Assembly: GCF_016903815.1 (NCBI RefSeq)
Contig: NZ_CP069973.1
DNA: 64,000 nt
Source: Escherichia coli
GTDB lineage: Bacteria; Pseudomonadota; Gammaproteobacteria; Enterobacterales; Enterobacteriaceae
Strand: one strand, 5' to 3'
The position numbers were made by a program, and so were the translations under genes. The notes under the pieces are model-generated. The model did no database searches and had not been told where the DNA came from. It saw only the letters and a list, made by a program, of their open reading frames with translations. Shown here piece by piece: positions 1 to 55,573 of the stretch (positions are counted from its first letter, which is position 1; every line of letters begins with the position of its first letter).

Positions 1-810
1 GGTTTTTACTGCGGGCTGGCGCTGTTTCTCATCATCACGCTGTTTCCATTTTTTGTGATGCTGATGACCTCGTTCAAGGGCGCGAAAGAGGCGATCTCAC
101 TGCATCCTACGCTGCTGCCGCAGCAGTGGACGCTGGAGCATTACGTCGACATTTTTAACCCGATGATTTTCCCGTTTGTCGACTACTTCCGTAACAGTCT
201 GGTGGTGTCGGTGGTTTCATCCGTGGTGGCGGTATTCCTCGGCATTCTTGGGGCTTACGCGCTTTCCCGCCTGCGCTTTAAAGGTCGGATGACCATCAAT
301 GCCAGCTTTTACACGGTGTATATGTTCTCTGGCATTTTGCTGGTGGTGCCGCTGTTCAAAATCATCACCGCGCTGGGCATTTACGACACCGAGATGGCGC
401 TGATCATCACCATGGTGACGCAAACTCTGCCCACCGCCGTGTTTATGCTGAAAAGCTACTTCGACACCATCCCCGATGAGATCGAAGAAGCGGCGATGAT
501 GGATGGCCTCAACCGTCTGCAAATTATCTTCCGCATCACCGTGCCGTTGGCGATGTCCGGGCTGATATCCGTGTTCGTCTACTGCTTTATGGTGGCGTGG
601 AACGACTATCTGTTTGCGTCGATTTTCCTCTCCAGCGCCAGCAATTTCACCTTACCGGTGGGCCTGAACGCGCTGTTCAGTACGCCAGATTACATCTGGG
701 GACGGATGATGGCGGCCTCACTGGTGACCGCATTGCCGGTGGTGATTATGTATGCGCTTTCGGAACGTTTTATTAAGAGTGGTTTGACCGCCGGTGGCGT
801 GAAGGGCTAA
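1..810 (+). CDS. ycjP: Sugar ABC transporter permease, C-terminal part; gene begins upstream of the window
   Basis: ORF open to window start, stop at 810; polytopic membrane protein with the permease EAA-loop region; followed by ycjQ as in K-12. Confidence 0.8.
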   Translation, partial: GFYCGLALFLIITLFPFFVMLMTSFKGAKEAISLHPTLLPQQWTLEHYVDIFNPMIFPFVDYFRNSLVVSVVSSVVAVFLGILGAYALSRLRFKGRMTINASFYTVYMFSGILLVVPLFKIITALGIYDTEMALIITMVTQTLPTAVFMLKSYFDTIPDEIEEAAMMDGLNRLQIIFRITVPLAMSGLISVFVYCFMVAWNDYLFASIFLSSASNFTLPVGLNALFSTPDYIWGRMMAASLVTALPVVIMYALSERFIKSGLTAGGVKG

Positions 811-840: not shown

Positions 841-1893
841 ATGAAAAAGTTAGTAGCCACAGCACCGCGTGTTGCTGCGCTGGTTGAGTATGAAGATCGG
901 GCGATTTTAGCCAATGAAGTGAAAATCCGCGTGCGTTTCGGCGCACCGAAACACGGAACGGAAGTGGTCGACTTCCGCGCCGCCAGCCCGTTTATCGATG
1001 AAGACTTTAACGGCGAATGGCAGATGTTCACTCCGCGTCCGGCAGATGCGCCGCGCGGCATTGAGTTTGGCAAATTCCAGCTTGGCAACATGGTGGTTGG
1101 CGACATTATCGAGTGCGGCAGCGACGTTACCGACTACGCGGTGGGCGACAGCGTATGCGGCTACGGCCCGCTCTCCGAGACGGTCATCATTAACGCGGTG
1201 AATAACTACAAGCTGCGCAAAATGCCGGAAGGCAGCTCGTGGAAAAACGCCGTTTGTTACGACCCGGCGCAGTTTGCCATGAGCGGCGTGCGCGATGCCA
1301 ACGTGCGCGTGGGTGATTTTGTGGTGGTGGTAGGGCTTGGCGCGATTGGTCAAATAGCCATCCAACTGGCGAAACGCGCTGGCGCGTCGGTGGTGATTGG
1401 CGTCGATCCTATCGCCTATCGCTGTGATATTGCCCGTCGCCACGGCGCGGATTTCTGCCTTAACCCCATTGGCACTGACGTAGGCAAAGAGATCAAAACG
1501 CTAACCGGCAAGCAGGGTGCCGATGTGATTATCGAAACCAGCGGCTATGCCGACGCGCTGCAATCGGCGCTACGAGGTCTGGCTTATGGCGGCACCATCT
1601 CCTATGTCGCGTTTGCCAAACCGTTTGCCGAAGGTTTTAACCTCGGACGCGAAGCGCATTTCAATAACGCAAAAATTGTCTTCTCCCGCGCGTGCAGCGA
1701 ACCGAACCCGGATTATCCGCGCTGGAGCCGCAAGCGTATCGAAGAAACCTGCTGGGAACTGCTGATGAACGGTTATCTCAATTGCGAAGATTTAATCGAC
1801 CCGGTGGTGACCTTTGCCAATAGCCCGGAAAGCTACATGCAGTATGTCGACCAGCATCCGGAACTGAGCATCAAAATGGGCGTCACGTTTTAA
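841..1893 (+). CDS. ycjQ: Zn-dependent (MDR-family) sugar dehydrogenase, D-guloside 3-dehydrogenase type
   Basis: 350 aa ORF; GLGAIG Rossmann motif; position in ycj cluster. Confidence 0.85.
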   Translation: MKKLVATAPRVAALVEYEDRAILANEVKIRVRFGAPKHGTEVVDFRAASPFIDEDFNGEWQMFTPRPADAPRGIEFGKFQLGNMVVGDIIECGSDVTDYAVGDSVCGYGPLSETVIINAVNNYKLRKMPEGSSWKNAVCYDPAQFAMSGVRDANVRVGDFVVVVGLGAIGQIAIQLAKRAGASVVIGVDPIAYRCDIARRHGADFCLNPIGTDVGKEIKTLTGKQGADVIIETSGYADALQSALRGLAYGGTISYVAFAKPFAEGFNLGREAHFNNAKIVFSRACSEPNPDYPRWSRKRIEETCWELLMNGYLNCEDLIDPVVTFANSPESYMQYVDQHPELSIKMGVTF

Positions 1894-1911: not shown

Positions 1912-2700
1912 ATGAAAATCGGCACACAGAATCAGGCGTTCTTTCCGGAAAATATTCTGGAGAAATTTCGTTATATCAAAGAGATGGGCTTCGATGGTTT
2001 TGAGATTGACGGCAAACTTCTGGTCAACAACATCGAAGAAGTCAAAGCGGCGATCAAAGAAACCGGTTTACCGGTGACCACCGCCTGCGGCGGCTATGAC
2101 GGCTGGATTGGCGACTTTATCGAAGAGCGTCGTCTTAATGGCTTAAAGCAGATCGAACGCATTCTTGAAGCGCTGGCCGAAGTGGGCGGTAAAGGTATCG
2201 TCGTTCCGGCAGCGTGGGGCATGTTTACCTTCCGTTTACCGCCGATGGCCTCGCCGCGCAGCCTGGATGGCGACCGCAAAATGGTGAGTGATTCCCTGCG
2301 CGTACTGGAACAGGTGGCAGCGCGTACCGGAACCGTGGTGTACCTCGAACCGTTAAACCGCTATCAGGATCACATGATCAACACCCTCGCCGATGCTCGT
2401 CGTTACATCGTCGAAAACGATCTTAAACATGTACAGATTATCGGCGATTTCTATCACATGAATATCGAAGAAGATAACCTGGCGCAGGCGCTGCATGACA
2501 ACCGCGACCTGCTCGGTCATGTGCATATTGCAGATAACCATCGCTACCAGCCGGGCAGCGGCACCCTGGATTTCCACGCGCTGTTTGAACAGCTGCGCGC
2601 GGATAACTATCAGGGCTATGTGGTGTACGAAGGGCGTATCCGGGCAGAAGATCCTGCCCAGGCGTACCGTGATTCTTTGGCCTGGTTGCGTACCTGCTAA
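1912..2700 (+). CDS. ycjR: Sugar-phosphate isomerase/epimerase (TIM barrel), 3-keto-guloside epimerase type
   Basis: ORF 1903-2700; second ATG at 1912 has AAGGAA 8 nt upstream, giving 262 aa. Confidence 0.8.
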   Translation: MKIGTQNQAFFPENILEKFRYIKEMGFDGFEIDGKLLVNNIEEVKAAIKETGLPVTTACGGYDGWIGDFIEERRLNGLKQIERILEALAEVGGKGIVVPAAWGMFTFRLPPMASPRSLDGDRKMVSDSLRVLEQVAARTGTVVYLEPLNRYQDHMINTLADARRYIVENDLKHVQIIGDFYHMNIEEDNLAQALHDNRDLLGHVHIADNHRYQPGSGTLDFHALFEQLRADNYQGYVVYEGRIRAEDPAQAYRDSLAWLRTC

Positions 2701-2709
2701 GAGGTCTTT

Positions 2710-3765
2710 GTGAAAAGTGCAATGACAAGCTCTCCGCTGCGGGTCGCGATCATAGGCGCGGGCCAGGTGGCGGATAAGGTTCATGCTTCGTACTACTGCA
2801 CCCGCAACGATCTGGAACTGGTGGCTGTCTGTGACAGCCGCCTTTCCCAGGCGCAGGCGCTGGCAGAAAAATACGGGAATGCATCCGTGTGGGACGATCC
2901 GCAGGCCATGCTGCTGGCGGTGAAACCTGATGTGGTTAGCGTCTGCTCACCTAACCGTTTTCATTACGAACATACCCTGATGGCGCTGGAAGCGGGCTGC
3001 CATGTGATGTGCGAAAAACCGCCCGCCATGACGCCAGAACAGGCGCGGGAAATGTGCGATACCGCGCGCAAACAGGGCAAGGTGCTGGCCTACGACTTTC
3101 ACCATCGTTTTGCGCTCGATACGCAACAGCTGCGTGAACAGGTGACCAACGGCGTTTTGGGAGAGATTTACGTTACCACCGCCCGCGCCCTGCGTCGTTG
3201 CGGTGTTCCCGGCTGGGGTGTCTTTACCAATAAAGAATTGCAGGGCGGTGGCCCGCTGATCGACATCGGCATTCATATGCTGGATGCGGCGATGTATGTG
3301 CTGGGTTTTCCAGCGGTGAAAAGCGTGACTGCGCATAGCTTTCAAAAGATCGGCACGCAAAAGAGCTGCGGTCAATTTGGCGAGTGGGACCCGGCAACTT
3401 ACAGCGTCGAAGATTCGCTGTTTGGCACCATTGAATTTCATAACGGCGGCATTCTGTGGCTGGAAACGTCATTTGCACTCAACATCCGCGAACAGTCGAT
3501 TATGAACGTCAGCTTTTGTGGCGATAAAGCAGGGGCGACGCTGTTTCCGGCGCATATCTATACCGATAACAACGGTGAGTTAATGACGCTGATGCAACGG
3601 GAAATGGCAGACGACAACCGCCATTTGCGCAGTATGGAAGCCTTTATCAATCACGTACAGGGCAAGCCCGTGATGATAGCCGACGCCGAGCAGGGGTACA
3701 TCATCCAGCAACTGGTGGCGGCGTTGTATCAATCCGCAGAAACAGGGACGCGTGTGGAATTATGA
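2710..3765 (+). CDS. ycjS: Gfo/Idh/MocA-family oxidoreductase, D-glucoside 3-dehydrogenase type
   Basis: 351 aa ORF; N-terminal IIGAG Rossmann motif; GTG start; 4 nt overlap with ycjT. Confidence 0.85.
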   Translation: MKSAMTSSPLRVAIIGAGQVADKVHASYYCTRNDLELVAVCDSRLSQAQALAEKYGNASVWDDPQAMLLAVKPDVVSVCSPNRFHYEHTLMALEAGCHVMCEKPPAMTPEQAREMCDTARKQGKVLAYDFHHRFALDTQQLREQVTNGVLGEIYVTTARALRRCGVPGWGVFTNKELQGGGPLIDIGIHMLDAAMYVLGFPAVKSVTAHSFQKIGTQKSCGQFGEWDPATYSVEDSLFGTIEFHNGGILWLETSFALNIREQSIMNVSFCGDKAGATLFPAHIYTDNNGELMTLMQREMADDNRHLRSMEAFINHVQGKPVMIADAEQGYIIQQLVAALYQSAETGTRVEL

Positions 3766-6029
3766 CCAGGCCAGTAACGTTATCAGAACCCCATTTCAGC
3801 CAGCATACACTGAACAAATATGCTTCACTGATGGCGCAGGGGAACGGCTATCTTGGGCTTCGCGCCAGCCATGAAGAAGATTACACGCGCCAGACCCGTG
3901 GGATGTATCTGGCGGGGCTGTATCATCGGGCGGGTAAGGGTGAAATCAACGAACTGGTGAACCTGCCTGATGTCGTGGGGATGGAGATTGCCATAAATGG
4001 TGAGGTTTTTGCGTTATCCCGCGAAACATGGCAGCGTGAGCTTGACTTTGCCAGTGGCGAATTACGCCGCAACGTTGTCTGGTGTACCAGTAACGGCGCG
4101 CGTTACACAATCGTCAGCCGTCGCTTTGTTTCGGCAGACCAACTGCCGCTGATTGCGCTGGAAATCACTATTACTCCGCTGGACGCTGACGCGTCAGTGC
4201 TGATTTCAACAGGCATTGACGCCACGCAAACCAACCACGGACGACAACATCTCGACGAAACCCAGGTGCGGGTGTTTGGTCAGCATTTGATGCAGGGGAT
4301 CTATACCACTCAGGATGGACGCAGTGATGTGGCCATCAGCTGTTGCTGTAAGGTGAGCGGTGATGTGCAGCAATGCTATACCGCCAAAGAGCGCCGCTTG
4401 CTGCAACATACCAGTGCGCAACTTCACGCAGGCGAAACGCTGACGCTGCAAAAACTGGTGTGGTTCGACTGGCGGGACGACAGACACGTCGCTTTAGACG
4501 AGTGGGGCAGTGCATCGCTTCGTCAGCTTGAAATGTGTGTACAGCAGAGTTACGACCAACTTCTTGCAGCATCCACAGAAAACTGGCGTCAATGGTGGCA
4601 GAAACGTCGTATCACGGTAAAGAGTAACGATGAGCACAATCAGCAGGCGTTAGATTATGCGCTTTATCATCTGCGCATCATGACGCCTGCTCACGACGAG
4701 CGCAGCAGTATTGCGGCAAAAGGTTTGACCGGGGAAGGCTACAAAGGCCACGTTTTCTGGGATACAGAAGTATTTTTGCTACCGTTTCATCTGTTTAGCG
4801 ATCCGACGGTTGCCCGAAGTTTACTGCGTTATCGCTGGCACAACTTGCCAGGCGCGCAGGAGAAAGCGCGACGCAACGGCTGGCAGGGCGCGCTATTTCC
4901 GTGGGAAAGCGCGCGCAGCGGCGAAGAAGAGACGCCGGAATTTGCCGCCATTAACATTCGCACCGGGCTGCGGCAAAAAGTGGCCTCGGCGCAGGCGGAA
5001 CATCATCTGGTCGCCGATATCGCCTGGGCGGTTGTTCAATACTGGCAGACCACGGGGGATGAAAGTTTCATTGCTCATGAAGGCATGGCGCTACTTCTGG
5101 AAACTGCAAAGTTCTGGATTAGCCGCACGGTGAGGGTTAACGACCGTCTGGAAATTCATGATGTTATTGGGCCAGACGAATATACCGAACATGTCAATAA
5201 TAACGCCTTCACCAGCTATATGGCGTATTACAACGTCCAGCAGGCGCTGAACATCGCTCGTCAATTTGGCTGTAGCGACGATGCGTTTATCCATCGCGCC
5301 GAAATGTTCCTTAAAGAACTGCGGCTGCCAGAAATTCAGCCCGACGGCGTTTTGCCGCAGGATGATTCGTTTATGGCGAAACCAGCGATTAATCTGGCGA
5401 AATACAAAGCGGCGGCGGGGAAGCAAACCATTCTGCTGGATTATTCACGCGCAGAAGTGAACGAGATGCAGATCCTCAAACAAGCTGATGTGGTGATGCT
5501 CAATTACATGCTGCCGGAGCAGTACTCAGCGGCATCGTGTCTTGCCAATCTGCAATTTTATGAACCGCGCACCATTTACGACTCTTCACTGAGTAAAGCG
5601 ATCCACGACATTGTTGCCGCACGCTGTGGCCTGTTGGCGCAAAGTTATCAGTTCTGGCGGGAGGGGACTGAAATCGATCTCGGTGCTGACCCGCATAGCT
5701 GCGACGACGGTATCCATGCTGCCGCAACTGGCGCTATCTGGCTGGGGGCGATTCAGGGTTTTGCCGGGGTGAGCGTGCGTGACGGTGAATTAAATTTGAA
5801 TCCGGCGTTACCTGTGCAGTGGCAACAGTTGTCTTTCCCTCTGTTCTGGCAGGGCTGCGAATTACAGGTCACTCTCGACGCGCAGCGTATTGCGATTCGA
5901 ACTTCTGCGCCCGTTTCACTGCGTTTGAACGGGCAGCTTATATCTGTGGCTGAAGAATCTGTTTTCTGTTTGGGTGATTTTATTTTGCCCTTCAATGGGA
6001 CCGCTACCACGCATCAGGAGGATGAATGA
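3762..6029 (+). CDS. ycjT: GH65 disaccharide (kojibiose) phosphorylase
   Basis: 755 aa ORF; size and context of K-12 YcjT; overlaps ycjU start. Confidence 0.85.
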
Positions 6030-6685
6030 AACTGCAAGGGGTAATTTTCGATCTGGATGGTGTAATCACCGATACCGCGCATCTGCATTTCAAGGCGTGG
6101 CAGCAGATTGCCGCTGAAATTGGCATCAGCATTGATGCGCAGTTTAACGAATCCCTAAAAGGGATCAGCCGCGATGAGTCTCTGCGACGCATTCTGCAAC
6201 ACGGGGGCAAAGAGGGCGACTTTAACCCGCAGGAAAGGGCGCAACTGGCGTATCGCAAAAATCTGCTCTACGTCCACTCACTGCGCGAACTGACGGTTAA
6301 TGCTGTGCTGCCCGGCATTCGCTCTTTGCTGACAGATCTCTGCGCACAGCAGATCCCTATAGGGCTGGCTTCTGTCTCCCTGAATGCGCCGACGATTTTA
6401 GCAGCGCTGGAGCTGCGCGAGTTTTTCACCTTCTGCGCGGACGCTTCCCAACTTAAAAACTCGAAACCGGACCCGGAAATCTTTCTCGCCGCCTGTGCCG
6501 GACTGGGCGTGCCGCCGCAGGCATGTATCGGTATTGAAGATGCGCAGGCGGGCATTGACGCCATTAACGCCAGCGGTATGCGCTCGGTGGGGATCGGCGC
6601 GGGCTTAACCGGGGCGCAATTATTGTTGCCCTCAACGGACTCCCTGACCTGGCCGCGGTTATCGGCCTTCTGGCAAAACGTATAG
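6026..6685 (+). CDS. ycjU: Beta-phosphoglucomutase (HAD superfamily)
   Basis: 219 aa; N-terminal [12 protein letters not shown] motif. Confidence 0.9.
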
Positions 6686-6698
6686 CAAAGGAATCAAC

Positions 6699-7781
6699 AT
6701 GGCTCAGCTTTCGTTACAACATATTCAAAAAATCTACGATAACCAGGTGCATGTGGTGAAGGACTTCAACCTGGAAATTGCCGATAAAGAGTTCATTGTC
6801 TTTGTCGGTCCGTCAGGCTGCGGTAAATCGACCACCCTGCGCATGATTGCCGGGCTTGAGGAGATCAGCGGCGGCGATCTGTTGATCGACGGCAAACGAA
6901 TGAATGACGTTCCAGCCAAAGCGCGCAATATTGCGATGGTGTTCCAGAACTACGCGCTGTATCCGCATATGACGGTCTACGACAACATGGCGTTTGGCCT
7001 GAAGATGCAAAAAATCGCCAAAGAGGTGATTGATGAGCGGGTGAACTGGGCGGCGCAAATTCTCGGCCTGCGTGAGTACCTGAAACGCAAGCCGGGGGCT
7101 CTTTCTGGCGGGCAACGCCAGCGTGTGGCGCTCGGGCGGGCGATTGTGCGTGAAGCGGGCGTGTTTTTAATGGATGAACCGCTCTCTAACCTTGATGCCA
7201 AGCTGCGCGTACAAATGCGCGCAGAGATCAGCAAGCTGCATCAGAAACTGAACACCACCATGATCTACGTGACCCACGATCAGACCGAAGCGATGACCAT
7301 GGCGACGCGGATTGTGATTATGAAGGATGGGATTGTTCAGCAAGTAGGTGCGCCGAAAACGGTTTATAACCAACCCGCGAATATGTTTGTTGCCGGATTT
7401 ATTGGATCACCGGCGATGAATTTTATTCGCGGCACGATCGATGGCGATAAATTCGTTACTGAAACGCTTAAATTAACCATTCCCGAAGAGAAATTAGCGG
7501 TTCTGAAAACACAGGAAAGTTTGCATAAGCCCATCGTGATGGGAATACGCCCGGAAGATATTCATCCGGACGCGCAAGAGGAAAATAACATTTCCGCCAA
7601 AATTAGCGTGGCAGAATTAACCGGTGCGGAATTTATGCTCTACACCACGGTTGGGGGGCACGAGTTAGTGGTCCGTGCTGGTGCGTTAAATGATTATCAT
7701 GCAGGAGAAAATATCACTATTCATTTTGATATGACTAAATGTCATTTCTTTGATGCAGAAACGGAAATAGCAATTCGCTAA
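6699..7781 (+). CDS. ycjV: MalK-like sugar ABC transporter ATP-binding protein, apparently intact here
   Basis: 360 aa; Walker A GPSGCGKST, LSGGQRQR signature, Walker B; full MalK-like C-terminal domain. Confidence 0.85.
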   Translation: MAQLSLQHIQKIYDNQVHVVKDFNLEIADKEFIVFVGPSGCGKSTTLRMIAGLEEISGGDLLIDGKRMNDVPAKARNIAMVFQNYALYPHMTVYDNMAFGLKMQKIAKEVIDERVNWAAQILGLREYLKRKPGALSGGQRQRVALGRAIVREAGVFLMDEPLSNLDAKLRVQMRAEISKLHQKLNTTMIYVTHDQTEAMTMATRIVIMKDGIVQQVGAPKTVYNQPANMFVAGFIGSPAMNFIRGTIDGDKFVTETLKLTIPEEKLAVLKTQESLHKPIVMGIRPEDIHPDAQEENNISAKISVAELTGAEFMLYTTVGGHELVVRAGALNDYHAGENITIHFDMTKCHFFDAETEIAIR

Positions 7782-7825
7782 ATACAGGGGGAAGGCATTC
7801 CCCCAGGATAATACAAGGAACAATA

Positions 7826-8731
7826 ATGAAAAAGTTATTACCCTGTACCGCACTGGTGATGTGTGCGGGAATGGCCTGCGCACAGGCCGAGGAAAAGAAC
7901 GACTGGCACTTTAATATCGGCGCGATGTACGAAATAGAAAACGTCGAGGGTTATGGCGAAGATATGGATGGGCTCGCGGAGCCTTCTGTCTATTTTAATG
8001 CCGCCAACGGGCCGTGGAGAATTTCTCTGGCTTATTATCAGGAAGGGCCGGTAGATTATAGCGCGGGTAAACGTGGAACATGGTTTGATCGCCCGGAGCT
8101 GGAGGTGCATTATCAGTTCCTCGAAAGCGATGATTTCAGTTTCGGCCTGACCGGCGGTTTTCGTAATTATGGTTATCACTACGTTGATGAACCGGGTAAA
8201 GACACGGCGAATATGCAGCGCTGGAAAATCGCGCCAGACTGGGATGTGAAACTGACTGACGATTTACGTTTCAACGGTTGGTTATCGATGTATAAATTTG
8301 CCAACGATCTGAACACGACCGGTTACGCTGATACCCGAGTCGAAACGGAAACAGGTCTGCAATATACCTTCAACGAAACGGTTGCTTTGCGAGTGAACTA
8401 TTATCTCGAGCGCGGCTTCAATATGGACGACAGCCGCAATAACGGTGAGTTTTCCACGCAAGAAATTCGTGCCTATTTGCCGCTGACGCTCGGCAACCAC
8501 TCGGTGACGCCGTATACGCGCATTGGGCTGGATCGCTGGAGTAACTGGGACTGGCAGGATGATATTGAACGTGAAGGCCATGATTTTAACCGTGTGGGGT
8601 TATTTTACGGTTATGATTTCCAGAATGGTCTTTCCGTTTCGCTGGAATACGCGTTTGAGTGGCAGGATCACGACGAAGGCGACAGCGATAAATTCCATTA
8701 TGCAGGTGTCGGCGTAAATTACTCGTTCTGA
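7826..8731 (+). CDS. ompG: Outer membrane porin G
   Basis: 301 aa; signal peptide; beta-barrel alternating pattern; C-terminal aromatic residue. Confidence 0.9.
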   Translation: MKKLLPCTALVMCAGMACAQAEEKNDWHFNIGAMYEIENVEGYGEDMDGLAEPSVYFNAANGPWRISLAYYQEGPVDYSAGKRGTWFDRPELEVHYQFLESDDFSFGLTGGFRNYGYHYVDEPGKDTANMQRWKIAPDWDVKLTDDLRFNGWLSMYKFANDLNTTGYADTRVETETGLQYTFNETVALRVNYYLERGFNMDDSRNNGEFSTQEIRAYLPLTLGNHSVTPYTRIGLDRWSNWDWQDDIEREGHDFNRVGLFYGYDFQNGLSVSLEYAFEWQDHDEGDSDKFHYAGVGVNYSF

Positions 8732-8841: not shown

Positions 8842-9840
8842 TTATTTCAGCGTCATATGCGTGGCAACGGTAATATTCTGTGGTGACGGTTTTCCAGAAA
8901 TTAAGCGGAATAATAACTCGCAGCTTTGTTGCCCTAACTCCTGCGTCGGAACATCGATGCCGCCCGGTGCAGGCGTTAAAATAAATGACAGCGTTTCATT
9001 GCTATAACCCACCACCGCTAACTGCTGCGGAATAGCAATATTTTTCTCTGCTGCCGCACGATAAATGCTCATTAATTTCAGGCTGTCAGTGGCAAATACG
9101 GCTTCTGGCAACGGCGACTGGCTTAATAATTGCCGTGCGGCTTGCAAGGCTGTTTCATGGGTATAACCGCCGTCAACAATCCATTCATCACGCACTGCAA
9201 TATTATGCGCAGCCAGACTTTGCTTATAGCCATTAACGCGGTCAACCGAAACATGGACATCAAGCGGAGCATGCAGGCAGGCAATATTTTGATGCCCACT
9301 TTCAATTAACGCATCGGTCAACGCAATGCTGTCGCCAAAATTATCGGTATCGACAGAATAAACATGGGCATATTGACCTTCAACTTTGCCAATTACCACC
9401 ACCGGAATATCATATTTATCGAGTTGGGCAAAAAATGACTCATCCGCTGGCGAACTTAGCATAATAATGCCTTTAATCATTTTCTGCTTAATTTTGCTTT
9501 CGCATTTTTGTAAGTCTTCTGCCAGGTTGTGCGACGTCTGCAATATCACGTCGAAACCTTCTTCTTCAGCTTTGGCGGTGATGGCATGTAAAACTTCCGA
9601 GAAAAACGGATTACCCGCCGTAGTTTTGGTCGAACGGGTAGAAATCACCATAATGGCATCAAAACCCGAAGAGGTCAGCGCGCGTGCCAGCTTGTTTGGT
9701 TGATACTGTAATTCTTCAATGGCCCGTAACACTTTTTCGCGCGCTTCCGGGGAGATATTGGTTTGCTTATTCAGCACGCGTGATACGGTGGATTTTGATA
9801 CGCCTGCAACCCTGGCAATATCATAAATAGTAGGGGACAT
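8842..9840 (-). CDS. ycjW: LacI-family transcriptional repressor
   Basis: 332 aa; N-terminal HTH ([21 protein letters not shown]) plus periplasmic-binding-like fold. Confidence 0.9.
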
Positions 9841-16766: not shown

Positions 16767-17405
16767 TTACATGAAGAATGGCTTATCGCCATCAGTCCCG
16801 GGCTGATTGATGCCTATATTCTCACCAATGTGTTTCTCAGGTTTATCGATGATATCTGTAATTAATGCTGCGACACTCTTACGTGATACGATCGTACCTT
16901 TGAATGGTTCATTGCGTGAGGTAAGCTCATAATCAATAATATCTTCATCGGTCAGCCAGGCAGGGCGAAGAATTGTATATTCCAGTCCAGAAGCCTCAAT
17001 TGCATCCGCAGCCCTGCGGAATGGTTTTAGGGGCTCACAAATAACTGCATTATTCCATTCGCCAAATTTTCCTGGAACTTCATCATAAATACCGAGGGAA
17101 AGAACAAAGATCAGACGTTTAACATCACAGGCTTTCATCGCAGCGATCACTGAATTTGCCTGAATATCTAAATCTTCCCCCGTAAGGTTGGCATACACAA
17201 CATCCTGTCCCTGCATGGCCTGCTTCAGTGCTGCATGATTCAGTACATCCCCCATAATAATCTTGCTATTAGTTGGATAGGGTTTGTGGATTTTTGCTGG
17301 CTGACGGGCAAATAAAGTTTGTTTAATGGTTTGTTTATCTGCCAGTTGATTAATCACATGGCGGGCTATCTGACCGCCAGCACCAAGAATCAGTACATTT
17401 TTCAT
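16767..17405 (-). CDS. ymjC: NAD(P)-binding NmrA/SDR-like protein, full length here
   Basis: 212 aa; N-terminal ILGAGGQIARH Rossmann motif. Confidence 0.7.
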   Translation of the reverse strand: MKNVLILGAGGQIARHVINQLADKQTIKQTLFARQPAKIHKPYPTNSKIIMGDVLNHAALKQAMQGQDVVYANLTGEDLDIQANSVIAAMKACDVKRLIFVLSLGIYDEVPGKFGEWNNAVICEPLKPFRRAADAIEASGLEYTILRPAWLTDEDIIDYELTSRNEPFKGTIVSRKSVAALITDIIDKPEKHIGENIGINQPGTDGDKPFFM

Positions 17406-22465: not shown

Positions 22466-22708
22466 TGTTTTATCAGGCTCCTCCAGATAATTGTCGTCAT
22501 GCCGGAAACCCCTGGCGGGGCTATTTTACCGCGACAATTCATTCAGATCATCAATAGTCAGGGAAGGAAGTAGCAACATTAGCTAACTAATCAATGCGTT
22601 GATTGTAAATCCAGCTAAGAGGTGAGGTTTTCAGAGCAGACAACGGTAAAATGTCATGGTATTGTTATGTTTAGGTAACAAGAAATTTGTCTGCACAAGG
22701 ATTACATC

Positions 22709-30993: not shown

Positions 30994-31001
30994 AACTGCA
31001 T

Positions 31002-31095
31002 AAAAAAATAGAGCCTGTCGACATCCGCCAGACTCTACAGTACACACAGCAGTGCATCCTCGTCTTAAATCCGGCCTGGGGTCCTGGTGGCCGGT
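31002..31095 (-). ncRNA. mcaS: McaS (IsrA) small regulatory RNA
   Basis: Minus-strand sequence matches remembered McaS; terminal hairpin followed by U7. Confidence 0.7.
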
Positions 31096-31165: not shown

Positions 31166-31981
31166 TTAAATCATTTGTCTTGTGATTGCATAATCATGCA
31201 TCGTTAATCGACGAGTAAATTTACCGGGCGAGTAGCCCGTTCGACGCTTAAACATATTGCCGAACGATTCAGCTGAGGCATAGCCCAGACGATGGGCAAT
31301 TTTGGTCAACGAATATCCATCATCAAGAAGCGTCACTGCAGAAATAACGTGCATTTGCTGAACCCAGTGGCGAAATGTTAATCCCGTCTCTTTAACAAAT
31401 AAGCGCATGAGTGTACGGCTACTGACGTTAATTTTATCCGCTAGATTATCCAGTGTTGGCAGATACCCTTGGTTGTTTAGCAAATTCTCACAAAGCTGCT
31501 GTAGCCGCTCATCATTTGGCCAAGGGAGTTCAAGTGACATTTTCACCCCCATTTTTATTTCCTGAAGTATCAGTGTCTCGAGGGCTGAAAAACGTAACTG
31601 TTGTTTATCTGTGGTACTTTGCGACGGTGGAAGTTGGTTAATTGCAATTAGTAATTCCCTTAACAGGGGTGAAATACCCGTCATGAAGCAAACTTTTCCC
31701 AGCGTTTCACTTTCCGCTTCTGAAACCAGTACGGTTTTTAAAAGTACGTTGCCTGTCGCAACAAACTTATGCGGCATTTGTGGGGGCAGCCAAAGCGCGC
31801 TGCTGGCATGCACTAACCAGACGCTTTCTCCAGCCCATACACGAACGACTCCTTCAGCCGGGTAAAGCAACTGGGCATAGAGATGTTTATGCCAGGGAAC
31901 TGTGCCTCCATTCAGATGTTCCGAATCCAGTCCGATAATGTGATGCCCTGGTGATGCTTTGGGTTGCAGTGTGATTGTCAT
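31166..31981 (-). CDS. AraC/XylS-family regulator with cupin-like N-domain
   Basis: 271 aa; C-terminal double HTH; divergent from the efflux genes. Confidence 0.8.
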   Translation of the reverse strand: MTITLQPKASPGHHIIGLDSEHLNGGTVPWHKHLYAQLLYPAEGVVRVWAGESVWLVHASSALWLPPQMPHKFVATGNVLLKTVLVSEAESETLGKVCFMTGISPLLRELLIAINQLPPSQSTTDKQQLRFSALETLILQEIKMGVKMSLELPWPNDERLQQLCENLLNNQGYLPTLDNLADKINVSSRTLMRLFVKETGLTFRHWVQQMHVISAVTLLDDGYSLTKIAHRLGYASAESFGNMFKRRTGYSPGKFTRRLTMHDYAITRQMI

Positions 31982-32077
31982 TTACAGTAGGTATTTTGTC
32001 AGAAATCATCAAATAAGCCATGTTAAATTTTAAATATGACGAATGCAAGTTTCCGGATATATACGGTGTAAAGAGTG

Positions 32078-33106
32078 ATGATAATTTCTAAAAAACAGCT
32101 TATTGGGGTGGTAGCGATCGGTATTATTTTGGCTGGCGTTGCCTTTTTTATCTGGTGGGTAAGCAAAGGAAGATTTATACAGACGACGGATGATGCTTAC
32201 ATTGGTGGTAATATCACCACGGTGGCAAGTAAAGTTTCTGGTTATATTTCTGCTATAGAGGTGCGCGATAATCAGAGCGTAAAAAAAGGCGATATTATCC
32301 TGCGTCTCGATGATCGGGATTATCGTGCAAATGTCGCCAGGCTTGAGGCAAAAATAAAAAGTAGCAAAGCCAATCTCGAAAGCATTCAAGCCACTATTAC
32401 GATGCAGCAGTCGATAATTCAAAGTGCCAGTGAAACATGGCAGGCAGTAAAACATGAGGAGCAAAAGCGCCTGCGAGATACTGAACGTTATGAAAAACTC
32501 GCACAATCAGCGGCAATATCGCAACAAGTTATTGATAACGCAAGGTTTGACTACCAGCAGGTCACAGCAAAGGAGCGCAAAGCCGCGAACGATTTCATGG
32601 TGGAGAAGCAACGGCTGGCAGTTTTATCTGCTCAGGAAGAAAACGTACGTGCAAGTATCGAAGAAGTTCAGGCCGCTTTGACTCAGGCACTACTGGATCT
32701 GGAATATACCCTTGTTCGTGCGCCGATTGATGGCATTGTCGCAAACCGCAGCGCCCATACAGGCAGTTGGGTGGAAGGCGGCACATCGTTAGTTTCACTA
32801 GTACCAGTCAGTGAGTTGTGGGTTGATGCAAATTATAAAGAAAACCAAATAGCGGGAATGAAGCCAGGAATGAAGGCTGAGATCCGTGCTGATATTCTCA
32901 AAGGGGAAGTGTTTCACGGTCACATTGAAAGCCTTTCCCCAGCGACAGGAGCCAGTTTCAGCTTGATTCCGATAGAAAATGCCACTGGCAATTTCACCAA
33001 AATTGTTCAGCGTGTCCCGGTACGGATTGCATTTGACGACGCAAAGGAATTAAAGCAACTTCTTCGCCCGGGGCTGTCCGTCACCGTCAGTGTTGATGAG
33101 AGATGA
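32078..33106 (+). CDS. HlyD/EmrA-family membrane fusion protein of a multidrug efflux pump
   Basis: about 342 aa; N-terminal TM anchor, coiled coil, beta-barrel region like EmrA/EmrK. Confidence 0.8.
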   Translation: MIISKKQLIGVVAIGIILAGVAFFIWWVSKGRFIQTTDDAYIGGNITTVASKVSGYISAIEVRDNQSVKKGDIILRLDDRDYRANVARLEAKIKSSKANLESIQATITMQQSIIQSASETWQAVKHEEQKRLRDTERYEKLAQSAAISQQVIDNARFDYQQVTAKERKAANDFMVEKQRLAVLSAQEENVRASIEEVQAALTQALLDLEYTLVRAPIDGIVANRSAHTGSWVEGGTSLVSLVPVSELWVDANYKENQIAGMKPGMKAEIRADILKGEVFHGHIESLSPATGASFSLIPIENATGNFTKIVQRVPVRIAFDDAKELKQLLRPGLSVTVSVDER

Positions 33107-34617
33107 TGTCTATGCGTAAACATATTGCTTTCGCCAGTATGTGTATGGGATTATTTATTGCTCAGCTTGATATTCAAATTGTATCGTCATCCCTAAATGA
33201 AATAGGTGGTGGTCTGTCCGCAGGTAAAGACGAAATGGCCTGGCTTCAGACCAGCTATTTAATTGCTGAGATTATTGTTATTCCGCTCTCTGGGTGGCTG
33301 TCACGGGTATTTTCCACTCGTTGGCTTTTTACTCTATCCGCGGGAATATTTACTTTAATGAGTATCGCGTGTGGACTTGCATGGAATATTCAGATCATGA
33401 TTTTGTTTCGTGCTTTACAGGGAGCGGCTGGCGCATCCATGATCCCTTTAGTTTTCACGACGGCGTTTATTTATTACCAGGGTAAAGAGTTGGGGTTGGC
33501 TGCTGCGGTAGTCAGTGCGCTGGCCTCACTGTCACCGACGCTAGGGCCAACTCTGGGGGGCTGGATCACTGATAACCTCGACTGGCGATGGCTATTTTAT
33601 ATCAATATATTACCTGGCATATATTTAGTTTTGAGTATTCCTTTTCTGGTTAATTTTGATAAACCTGATCTCTCTTTACTGAAAGTTGCTGATTATCCGA
33701 GTATTATCCTGTTGGCCATGACACTGGGATGTCTGGAATATACCCTTGAAGAAGGAGCGCGCTGGGGATGGCTGGATGATAATACTATTTTGCTGACATC
33801 AGTTCTGGCATTGGTGAGTTTTATTTTATTTGCTGCGCGTACACTTACAATATCCAATCCGATAATGGATCTTCATGCTTTTAAGGATAAAAATTTCACG
33901 CTGGGATGTTTTTTTTCTTTTTCTGGAGGGGTTGGGATATTCTCTACTGTATATTTAATACCTATGTTTTTGGGGCAGGTTCGCGGATTAAATGCCGAAG
34001 AGATAGGTTTTGCCGTTTGCACAACAGGTATTTTCCAGTTATTTTCTGTTCCCTTTTACTTCTGGTTAAGTAAAAAAATAAATCTGCGATGGCTGTTGAT
34101 GGCGGGGCTGGGTGGGTTTGTGTTTTCAATGTATCTTTTTACCCCTATAACCCACGAATGGGGATGGCAGGAGTTACTGTTTCCACAGGCAATTAGAGGG
34201 ATTTCGCAGCAGTTTGCGATGGCCCCCATCGTAACATTAACGCTGGGGGGAACTCCAAAAGAACGGCTGAAGTTAGCCTCTGGTGTATTTAATTTAACAC
34301 GTAATCTTGGGGGCGCGATTGGTATTGCCCTGTGTGGCTCTATTCTCAATAATCGAACTAATTTTCATTTTTCGAGAATGGGTGAAAAAATGGTTTCTGT
34401 TCCCCATACGGTGAATGACTTCATTTCCAGAAGTGCTTTGTTTTTTAATCGCAGTGGAAGTGACCAGACATCGGAAATACTAGCTTCAACCAAATTATTG
34501 AGTCAATTGATGCTGAGGGAGGCGCAAACTATGGCATTTTCGGATACCTTTCTGCTAATCAGTGGTCTGTTATTTATCGCATTTTTGTTGGTTCCTGCTA
34601 TGAATAAATCATCCTGA
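33103..34617 (+). CDS. MFS DHA2-family (EmrB/EmrY-like, 14-TMS) efflux transporter
   Basis: 504 aa; LDIQIVSSSL / GLFIAQLD motifs; 4 nt overlap with the fusion-protein gene; low GC. Confidence 0.8.
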   Translation: MMSMRKHIAFASMCMGLFIAQLDIQIVSSSLNEIGGGLSAGKDEMAWLQTSYLIAEIIVIPLSGWLSRVFSTRWLFTLSAGIFTLMSIACGLAWNIQIMILFRALQGAAGASMIPLVFTTAFIYYQGKELGLAAAVVSALASLSPTLGPTLGGWITDNLDWRWLFYINILPGIYLVLSIPFLVNFDKPDLSLLKVADYPSIILLAMTLGCLEYTLEEGARWGWLDDNTILLTSVLALVSFILFAARTLTISNPIMDLHAFKDKNFTLGCFFSFSGGVGIFSTVYLIPMFLGQVRGLNAEEIGFAVCTTGIFQLFSVPFYFWLSKKINLRWLLMAGLGGFVFSMYLFTPITHEWGWQELLFPQAIRGISQQFAMAPIVTLTLGGTPKERLKLASGVFNLTRNLGGAIGIALCGSILNNRTNFHFSRMGEKMVSVPHTVNDFISRSALFFNRSGSDQTSEILASTKLLSQLMLREAQTMAFSDTFLLISGLLFIAFLLVPAMNKSS

Positions 34618-54925: not shown

Positions 54926-55447
54926 TGAAAATTCCTCAAGTTGGAGAGTTCTGGAACATTAAGGCGAGGTGGCAGTAATGCACCATCTGTAATCTTTTGA
55001 TACTGACGTAATCGGGCCTGATGTGCAACGCCTTGCAAGTATGTAACTCATTGAAAACGATCATTTTTATCTATTGACATCAAATGGCAAACTGTCATTG
55101 TGCGGCTATGGCAAGTGGCAAATGCTTATAAATCATATGGATATAAATAGTACAGAAAGAGTTGTTTTCTCTAGGATATGAGTATACGCCCAATGCTGAT
55201 TGGTTGAATTTTGTTCTTGTTTTAAAGGGTAAGAGTTTAAAGTGTTGGCAGTGATGTATTGGATAGTTAGAATTGCTGTGGGTGCTTGAGGCTATCTGCC
55301 TCGGGCATGAACACCAAAGGTAGATAGAGAAAAGCCCCAGTTAACATTACGCGTCCTGCAAGACGTTTAACATTAATCTGAGGCCATATCTATGCGACAC
55401 ATAGAGATTAGCCTCTTACGGACCGAAAGGTCAAGGAGAAGCAGGCT

Positions 55448-55573
55448 ATGAAGCAGCAAAAGGCGATGTTAATCGCCCTGATCGTCATCTGTTTAACCGT
55501 CATAGTGACGGCACTGGTAACGAGGAAAGACCTCTGCGAGGTACGAATCCGAACTGGCAGACGGAGGCTCTGA
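55448..55573 (+). CDS. Hok/Gef-family type I toxin homolog (HokD-like) with divergent C-terminus
   Basis: MKQQKAMLIALIVICLTVIVTALVTRKDLCEVRIRTG matches HokD N-terminus; frame then ends early (41 aa vs about 51); short upstream ORF ends on the hok ATG. Confidence 0.65.
   Translation: MKQQKAMLIALIVICLTVIVTALVTRKDLCEVRIRTGRRRL

Follow-up and report, generated by a model that had tools for sequence, protein, structure and literature searches.

The closest described counterparts of the gene considered here are the ATP-binding subunits of CUT1-class sugar importers (MsmX, MalK and UgpC) and the ycj cluster of Escherichia coli K-12 itself. The ycjMNOPQRSTUV-ompG operon is under repression by YcjW, which kojibiose releases in vitro, and MG1655 does not grow with kojibiose as the only carbon source (PMC6599011). 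For the transporter served by YcjN, the accessible text of PMC11543891 predicts that YcjO, YcjP and YcjV form the two transmembrane domains (TMDs) and the nucleotide-binding domain (NBD), and reports that a screen of sugars, kojibiose and maltose among them, found none that YcjN binds. An intact E. coli YcjV allele (WP_000057985.1, a different allele from the one described below) has ATPase activity when purified; MsmX of Bacillus subtilis and YcjV are 64% identical, and E. coli YcjV does not complement a B. subtilis msmX null (PMC7658222). The K-12 'pseudogene ycjV locus' is routinely used by metabolic engineers as a neutral integration site (PMC10380740). K-12 is also the strain that supplied the sequences for recent studies of YcjN and of the ycj cluster (PMC11543891, PMC13053599), the accessible text of which calls YcjV 'the NBD' and carries no remark on a K-12 frameshift.

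The ycjV gene examined here lies in a stretch of E. coli DNA of 64,000 nucleotides (hereafter the window), every base of which matches E. coli strain 7/2, isolated in Sweden from human faeces, without a mismatch (NZ_CP023820.1, 1500823-1564822). In the ORF list the region has one long plus-strand frame, opening with ATG and encoding 360 aa before its stop, at exactly the position and length given by the initial annotation (Table 1). That annotation had read the frame as unbroken through the ATPase motifs and a MalK-like C-terminus, a reading on which the ORF list, the Pfam search and the motif scan agree. All six ABC-ATPase motifs were found by the motif scan in the expected order, and the C-terminal domain is made up of OB_MalK (PF17912, aa 236-288, 54.9 bits against a cut-off of 27) and TOBE_2 (PF08402, aa 282-351, 39.8 bits against a cut-off of 21). 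RefSeq calls the same coding sequence in the identical strain 7/2 sequence, and its protein, WP_000057972.1 ('MULTISPECIES: ABC transporter ATP-binding protein [Enterobacteriaceae]'), is identical to the YcjV of the window and occurs without a change on 1,000 or more public contigs.

Table 1. Positions in the window of ycjV, its motifs and domains, the neighbouring operon genes and three small RNAs.
Feature	Position	Strand	Basis or remark
ycjP, permease, cut at window start	1-810	+	RefSeq annotation of identical sequence
ycjQ	841-1893	+	RefSeq annotation of identical sequence
ycjR	1912-2700	+	RefSeq annotation of identical sequence
ycjS	2710-3765	+	RefSeq annotation of identical sequence
ycjT	3762-6029	+	RefSeq annotation of identical sequence
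pgmB/ycjU, beta-phosphoglucomutase	6026-6685	+	RefSeq annotation of identical sequence
AAGGA ribosome-binding site (Shine-Dalgarno)	6688-6692	+	6 nt before ycjV ATG; read from sequence
ycjV CDS, CUT1-type ABC transporter ATP-binding subunit	6699-7781	+	ORF list, Pfam, NCBIfam, RefSeq WP_000057972.1
ABC_tran (nucleotide-binding) domain, aa 21-162	6759-7184	+	Pfam PF00005, 110.5 bits, cut-off 25
Walker A / P-loop GPSGCGKS, aa 37-44	6807-6830	+	Motif scan
Q-loop VFQ, Q83	6939-6947	+	Motif scan
ABC signature LSGGQ, aa 135-139	7101-7115	+	Motif scan
Walker B VFLMDE, aa 155-160 (catalytic E160), then D-loop SNLD, aa 163-166	7161-7196	+	Motif scan
H-loop / switch histidine THD, H193	7272-7280	+	Motif scan
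C-terminal MalK-type regulatory domain, OB_MalK and TOBE_2	7404-7751	+	Pfam PF17912, PF08402
G6 homopolymer, codons 319-320 (GGG GGG); K-12 frameshift site	7653-7658	+	Alignment with W3110-P
Codons 321-360 (HELVVRAG...ETEIAIR), in frame here, gone from K-12 product	7659-7778	+	Translations
7-bp GC-rich hairpin GGGGGAA-ggca-TTCCCCC in the 44-nt ycjV-ompG spacer	7787-7804	+	Scan; RNA fold -13.6 kcal/mol, z -2.6
ompG, monomeric outer-membrane porin, last operon gene	7826-8731	+	ORF list, RefSeq annotation
ycjW, LacI-family repressor, divergent	8842-9840	-	ORF list, RefSeq annotation; repressor role, PMC6599011
McaS sRNA	31000-31095	-	Rfam gathering score, expected K-12 position
FnrS sRNA	38739-38856	+	Rfam gathering score, expected K-12 position
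RalA sRNA	43166-43344	+	Rfam gathering score, expected K-12 position

On the opposite strand beneath ycjV the ORF list holds only short frames of 64-100 aa. The ycjV region matches no Rfam family, and promoter and terminator scans of it returned matches at or below shuffle expectation. The ycjV frame is a genuine conserved gene and not a chance ORF. The stop codon of pgmB/ycjU leaves 13 nt to the ycjV ATG, so close to the start codon and its ribosome-binding site that ycjV is tightly packed in the operon. The 44-nt spacer on the other side, towards ompG, contains a GC-rich hairpin that we rejected as a typical intrinsic terminator, as no T-run follows it on the plus strand; it might be an element of mRNA stability or processing, or a weak attenuator ahead of ompG.

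All genes of the cluster (ycjM, N, O, P, Q, R, S, T, pgmB, ycjV, ompG and ycjW) are annotated as intact in strain 7/2, with ycjM, ycjN and ycjO lying just upstream of the window. Among them, ycjN encodes a substrate-binding lipoprotein, ycjO and ycjP carbohydrate ABC transporter permeases, ycjM and ycjT phosphorylases, and ycjQ, R and S dehydrogenases and an isomerase. The sole NBD/ATPase gene annotated in the cluster is ycjV, which sits about 5 kb downstream of ycjNOP with six enzyme genes in between. The setting is that of a CUT1 importer, the genes for the substrate-binding protein (SBP; ycjN) and for both permeases (ycjO and ycjP) sharing the operon of ycjV. Homology and context together make the ycjV product most likely the nucleotide-binding subunit of the YcjNOP importer. 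The initial annotation had spoken of a functional ATPase for YcjNOP, and this is what the sequence, the selection acting on it (see below) and the operon context would predict.

If so, YcjV would take part in a standard type I importer cycle, a dimer of it lying beneath the membrane permeases YcjO and YcjP and energising them. ATP would be bound across the interface of Walker A and LSGGQ, and its hydrolysis would power the import of a glucoside-type sugar that had crossed the OmpG porin and then been delivered by the lipoprotein binding protein YcjN. The C-terminal OB/TOBE domain would keep the dimer joined and may take regulatory input, as in MalK, and ycjV would be co-transcribed with the rest of the YcjW-repressed ycjMNOPQRSTUV-ompG operon. 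The partnership with YcjNOP, the kind of substrate and the role of TOBE suggested here draw on knowledge of the family and on context; the loss of function in K-12 considered below is likewise inferred.

The window gene is the orthologue of K-12 ycjV plus ymjB, with which it shares its place between pgmB/ycjU and ompG (the neighbours are the same in MG1655 and W3110-P) and 97.4% nucleotide identity over its full length. The initial annotation suggested that ycjV is a pseudogene in K-12, and the MG1655 annotation bears this out, dividing the locus into the pseudogene pieces ycjV (b1318, 1380821-1381789) and ymjB (b4524, 1381789-1381902); RefSeq flags the W3110-P gene as 'frameshifted', and the MG1655 and W3110-P sequences are identical. 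The alignment that it proposed places the lesion precisely. Besides 27 substitutions there is a single gap, one G missing from the run of six (GGGGG for GGGGGG at gene nt 955-960), which gives K-12 a gene of 1082 nt against 1083 and not one of the same intact length. The window does not carry the pseudogene allele of K-12, since its run is G6 and its frame stays open to codon 360.

After codon 320 the K-12 frame shifts, reads ...TTVGGTS and stops, yielding a product of 322 aa that lacks the final 40 residues of intact YcjV; 37 of these persist out of frame as ymjB. The ABC_tran and OB_MalK segments of this product score the same in Pfam as those of the intact protein, and its NBD is whole. TOBE_2 is reduced to 20.6 bits (cut-off 21) with profile positions 2-40 of 76 left, and the PF03459 TOBE match vanishes. 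The ycjV/ymjB pseudogene annotation thus goes back to the loss of one G, which halves the TOBE domain and leaves a product of 322 aa. Of the 40 residues lost, 18 are identical in B. subtilis MsmX, among them the terminal FDM.K.HFFD.ETE..IR block, and this conservation indicates that the intact length of 360 aa is ancestral. The sequence at 6699-7781 is therefore very probably the intact ancestral E. coli allele of ycjV, encoding the 360-aa ATP-binding subunit of an importer of the CUT1 (MalK/UgpC/MsmX-like) class.

The consequence of the frameshift for K-12 can be read in more than one way. A speculative and rather unlikely reading is that the loss of one G disables the YcjNOP-YcjV importer, which could explain both the failure of MG1655 to grow on kojibiose and the elusiveness of the ycj substrate in work on K-12. 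The literature searched, a scope outside which Mukherjee et al. 2018 fell, contained no link between this non-growth and the ycjV frameshift. It might instead be argued that the 322-aa product still works, so that the difference is harmless and the label 'pseudogene' a convention of annotation: the complete NBD and the OB_MalK segment are retained, and a 2025 paper describes, in its accessible text, vanadate-sensitive, YcjN-dependent uptake in what it calls a K-12 wild type and in BL21 derivatives (PMC13053599). However, that text does not clearly separate K-12 from BL21 hosts for the transport assays, BL21-lineage strains have an intact 1083-nt ycjV (Nico21(DE3)), and the readout in the accessible text was ethidium accumulation and no defined sugar flux. 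The truncation, moreover, removes the block conserved in MsmX and leaves TOBE_2 below its cut-off as half of a beta-barrel that is unlikely to fold, and the non-growth of MG1655 on kojibiose (PMC6599011) also counts against a working product. We consider it quite unlikely that the truncated protein is functional. Should the importer indeed be disabled in K-12, the true ycj substrate would come to light in intact-allele strains such as this one, or in K-12 after repair of the missing G. As a caution, studies of the ycj substrate and of growth on kojibiose or glucosylglycerate would do better to use a strain with the intact allele or a repaired K-12.

The substitutions separating the two alleles bear on the age of the lesion. 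When the window gene was compared with the frame-restored K-12 gene, 26 of the 27 substitutions were synonymous (pN/pS 0.011), the sole amino-acid difference being A232S (S232 in K-12). Past the frameshift the alleles differ by a single substitution, a synonymous one when read in the original frame. As for the K-12 protein with its frame restored (S232, 360 aa), at least 1,000 public contigs encode it in intact form, under the name 'Maltose import ATP-binding protein YcjV'. From the 26:1 synonymous excess, the single substitution past the lesion and the existence of the S232 protein in intact form elsewhere, we conclude that the K-12 lesion is recent, having arisen on a background that was until then under strong purifying selection.

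To place both alleles in the species, we surveyed 5,426 complete E. coli genomes, of which 4,980 hold at least 80% of ycjV; about 8% are without the gene and gave only matches to the ugpC-like paralogue. Exact matches were counted to a probe of 77 nt that has the G6 run at its centre, and to its 76-nt K-12 version with G5. The G6 probe was found in 4,378 of 4,995 complete genomes with the locus (about 88%), the G5 probe in 369, and a G7 version of the probe in one. Among the G5 matches listed, 57 of 60 were K-12 or probable K-12 laboratory strains (MG1655, W3110, DH5alpha, DH1, C600, J53 and similar), and at least 14 of the 369 carriers are not K-12. Intact ycjV is the norm in E. coli, with K-12 among the exceptions, and the G5 lesion of K-12 is mostly limited to its laboratory derivatives. 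These allele counts, like the full-length alignment to MsmX, speak against G5 as the ancestral and G6 as the derived state. The initial annotation was thus right that this strain keeps ycjV intact, though this is the usual state of the species and it is K-12 that is exceptional. A strain with intact ycjV is not special; the difference is an ordinary, documented one, and both the intact gene and the K-12 pseudogene are already recorded in public annotation.

Homopolymer length errors are frequent in long-read assemblies, and singletons such as the lone G7 genome could be errors of this kind. That the G6 of the window or the G5 of K-12 is itself such an artefact has next to no chance of being true, as G6 is common to 4,378 independent complete genomes and hundreds of K-12 derivatives, each sequenced independently, show G5, as does the curated MG1655 reference. 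Outside K-12, G5 was found on two further haplotypes, each of which is common in an otherwise identical G6 version. The first, that of 2014C-3051, differs from K-12 by 21 substitutions and occurs with G5 in three genomes (2014C-3051, O22:H8 RM10809-3 and EC6622) unrelated in size and source, which could represent independent events or assembly errors. The second, that of 08-00022, differs by 5 substitutions and occurs with G5 in 11 genomes, ten of them bovine OkiPb isolates; its G5 is probably real and no homopolymer error, because it is common to 11 genomes including a clone of ten bovine isolates. In the extracted loci of both 2014C-3051 and 08-00022, ycjV lies at 582-1663. A contraction from G6 to G5 on at least three haplotypes suggests that the run is a minor hotspot for slippage and that lineages lose the transporter repeatedly by this route; on the non-K-12 haplotypes the contraction could be recurrent slippage, with homopolymer assembly error possible for singletons. 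We also considered the run as a phase-variable tract and rejected this, since with G7 in one genome against G6 in 4,378 and G5 in 369 it is not hypervariable.

Other lesions are of different kinds. In BH100 the gene is 1084 nt long (501-1584 of the extracted locus), an A6 tract at gene nt 311-316 having become A7; the extra A brings the frame to a stop at codon 111, and this ycjV is marked as frameshifted in RefSeq. IS1 lies inside ycjV in four genomes (EC20-4B-2, CUWW10, ER1821R and ER2683). In STS63-2-E an IS1-bounded deletion runs from pspE into ycjV (3147-4412 of the extracted locus) so that ompG now follows the psp operon directly, an arrangement that we take to resemble the laboratory 'cog' deletions, which switch on OmpG in K-12. 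Loss of ycjV in nature is occasional, and the intact allele is the rule.

These losses are what would be expected if the state of ycjV were nearly neutral, either because another CUT1 ATPase (MalK or UgpC) energises YcjOP or because the operon is naturally silent. MalK and UgpC have been reported to be exchangeable in E. coli, which speaks for a replaceable ATPase, as do the independent lesions in natural isolates (G5 on two non-K-12 haplotypes, A7 in BH100, IS1 insertions and deletions) and the genomes that lack ycjV altogether for near-neutrality. Against this, the pN/pS of 0.011 and the exact conservation of the G6 region in about 88% of genomes point to sustained purifying selection on full-length YcjV, the inability of E. 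coli YcjV and MalK to replace MsmX with foreign permeases indicates that the pairing of NBD and TMD is specific (PMC7658222), and a secondary source (PMC8009128) cites ycjV among genes implicated in the colonisation of the bovine intestine by EHEC. We think it very unlikely that ycjV is dispensable in this way, and we favour an intact ancestral allele whose full length has been maintained by selection.

Several other features of the window differ from K-12. Besides ycjV, a second gene that has decayed in K-12 is intact here: an SDR-family oxidoreductase of 212 aa (16767-17405, minus strand) in the mpaA-ycjY interval, of which K-12 retains only the small remnants ymjC and ymjD. Between ynaI and ynaJ (22466-22708) there is no IS5, whereas MG1655 has IS5F at this place. 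Between McaS/abgR and smrA (31166-34558), where K-12 has no genes, the window carries an AraC-family regulator, an HlyD-family protein and a DHA2 MFS efflux permease, the MFS gene (33103-34558) being annotated as frameshifted in this strain. A copy of IS1 (transposase CDS 36393-37090) splits dgcM at 35396-37405, a gene that is intact in K-12 and encodes DgcM/YdaM, a diguanylate cyclase in the cascade that controls curli. RefSeq annotates 35396-36334 as a partial dgcM without its N-terminus and 37106-37405 as a partial 'hypothetical protein' without its C-terminus, the latter probably being the remainder of dgcM. Beside ttcA, a Rac-like prophage occupies 41610-64000, with intR, xisR, ralR/RalA, recET, kilR and sieB as in K-12. 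It is fuller than the Rac of K-12: among its extra items are a lysis cassette that looks complete (holin, GH24 lysozyme and lysis protein, about 60254-61536), of which K-12 has only the rzpR/rzoR remnants, and a hok/sok module (sok at 55280-55450).

With respect to the described ATPases of its class, YcjV passes the NCBIfam model of the UgpC subfamily (NF008653, 485.1 bits, cut-off 432) and falls short of the MalK equivalog (NF008233, 431.2 bits, cut-off 568), which makes it a paralogue of both and neither of the two itself. The name ugpC does not carry over to ycjV because NF008653 is a subfamily model and not an equivalog; the true E. coli ugpC, which encodes the ATPase of the sn-glycerol-3-phosphate importer, is a separate locus with about 72-73% nucleotide identity over 38% of ycjV. 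Among solved structures, YcjV has end-to-end matches to MsmX (6YIR), AlgS, archaeal MalK and E. coli MalK. The MalK of the E. coli maltose importer (PDB 1Q12, 2R6G and others) has the same NBD and OB/TOBE architecture (1Q12, E 5e-100, residues 1-353), although its regulatory contacts with MalT and EIIA-Glc are not to be assumed for YcjV. The best match is B. subtilis MsmX (PDB 6YIR, E 1e-148), which aligns from the first residue to the last and has the same set of motifs and the same C-terminal domain. In view of its level of identity to this shared 'multitask' ATPase, YcjV could energise more than a single pair of permeases. The two differ in their genetic setting, msmX being an orphan gene whose product serves several CUT1 permease pairs, whereas the operon of ycjV encodes a single SBP and a single pair of permeases.
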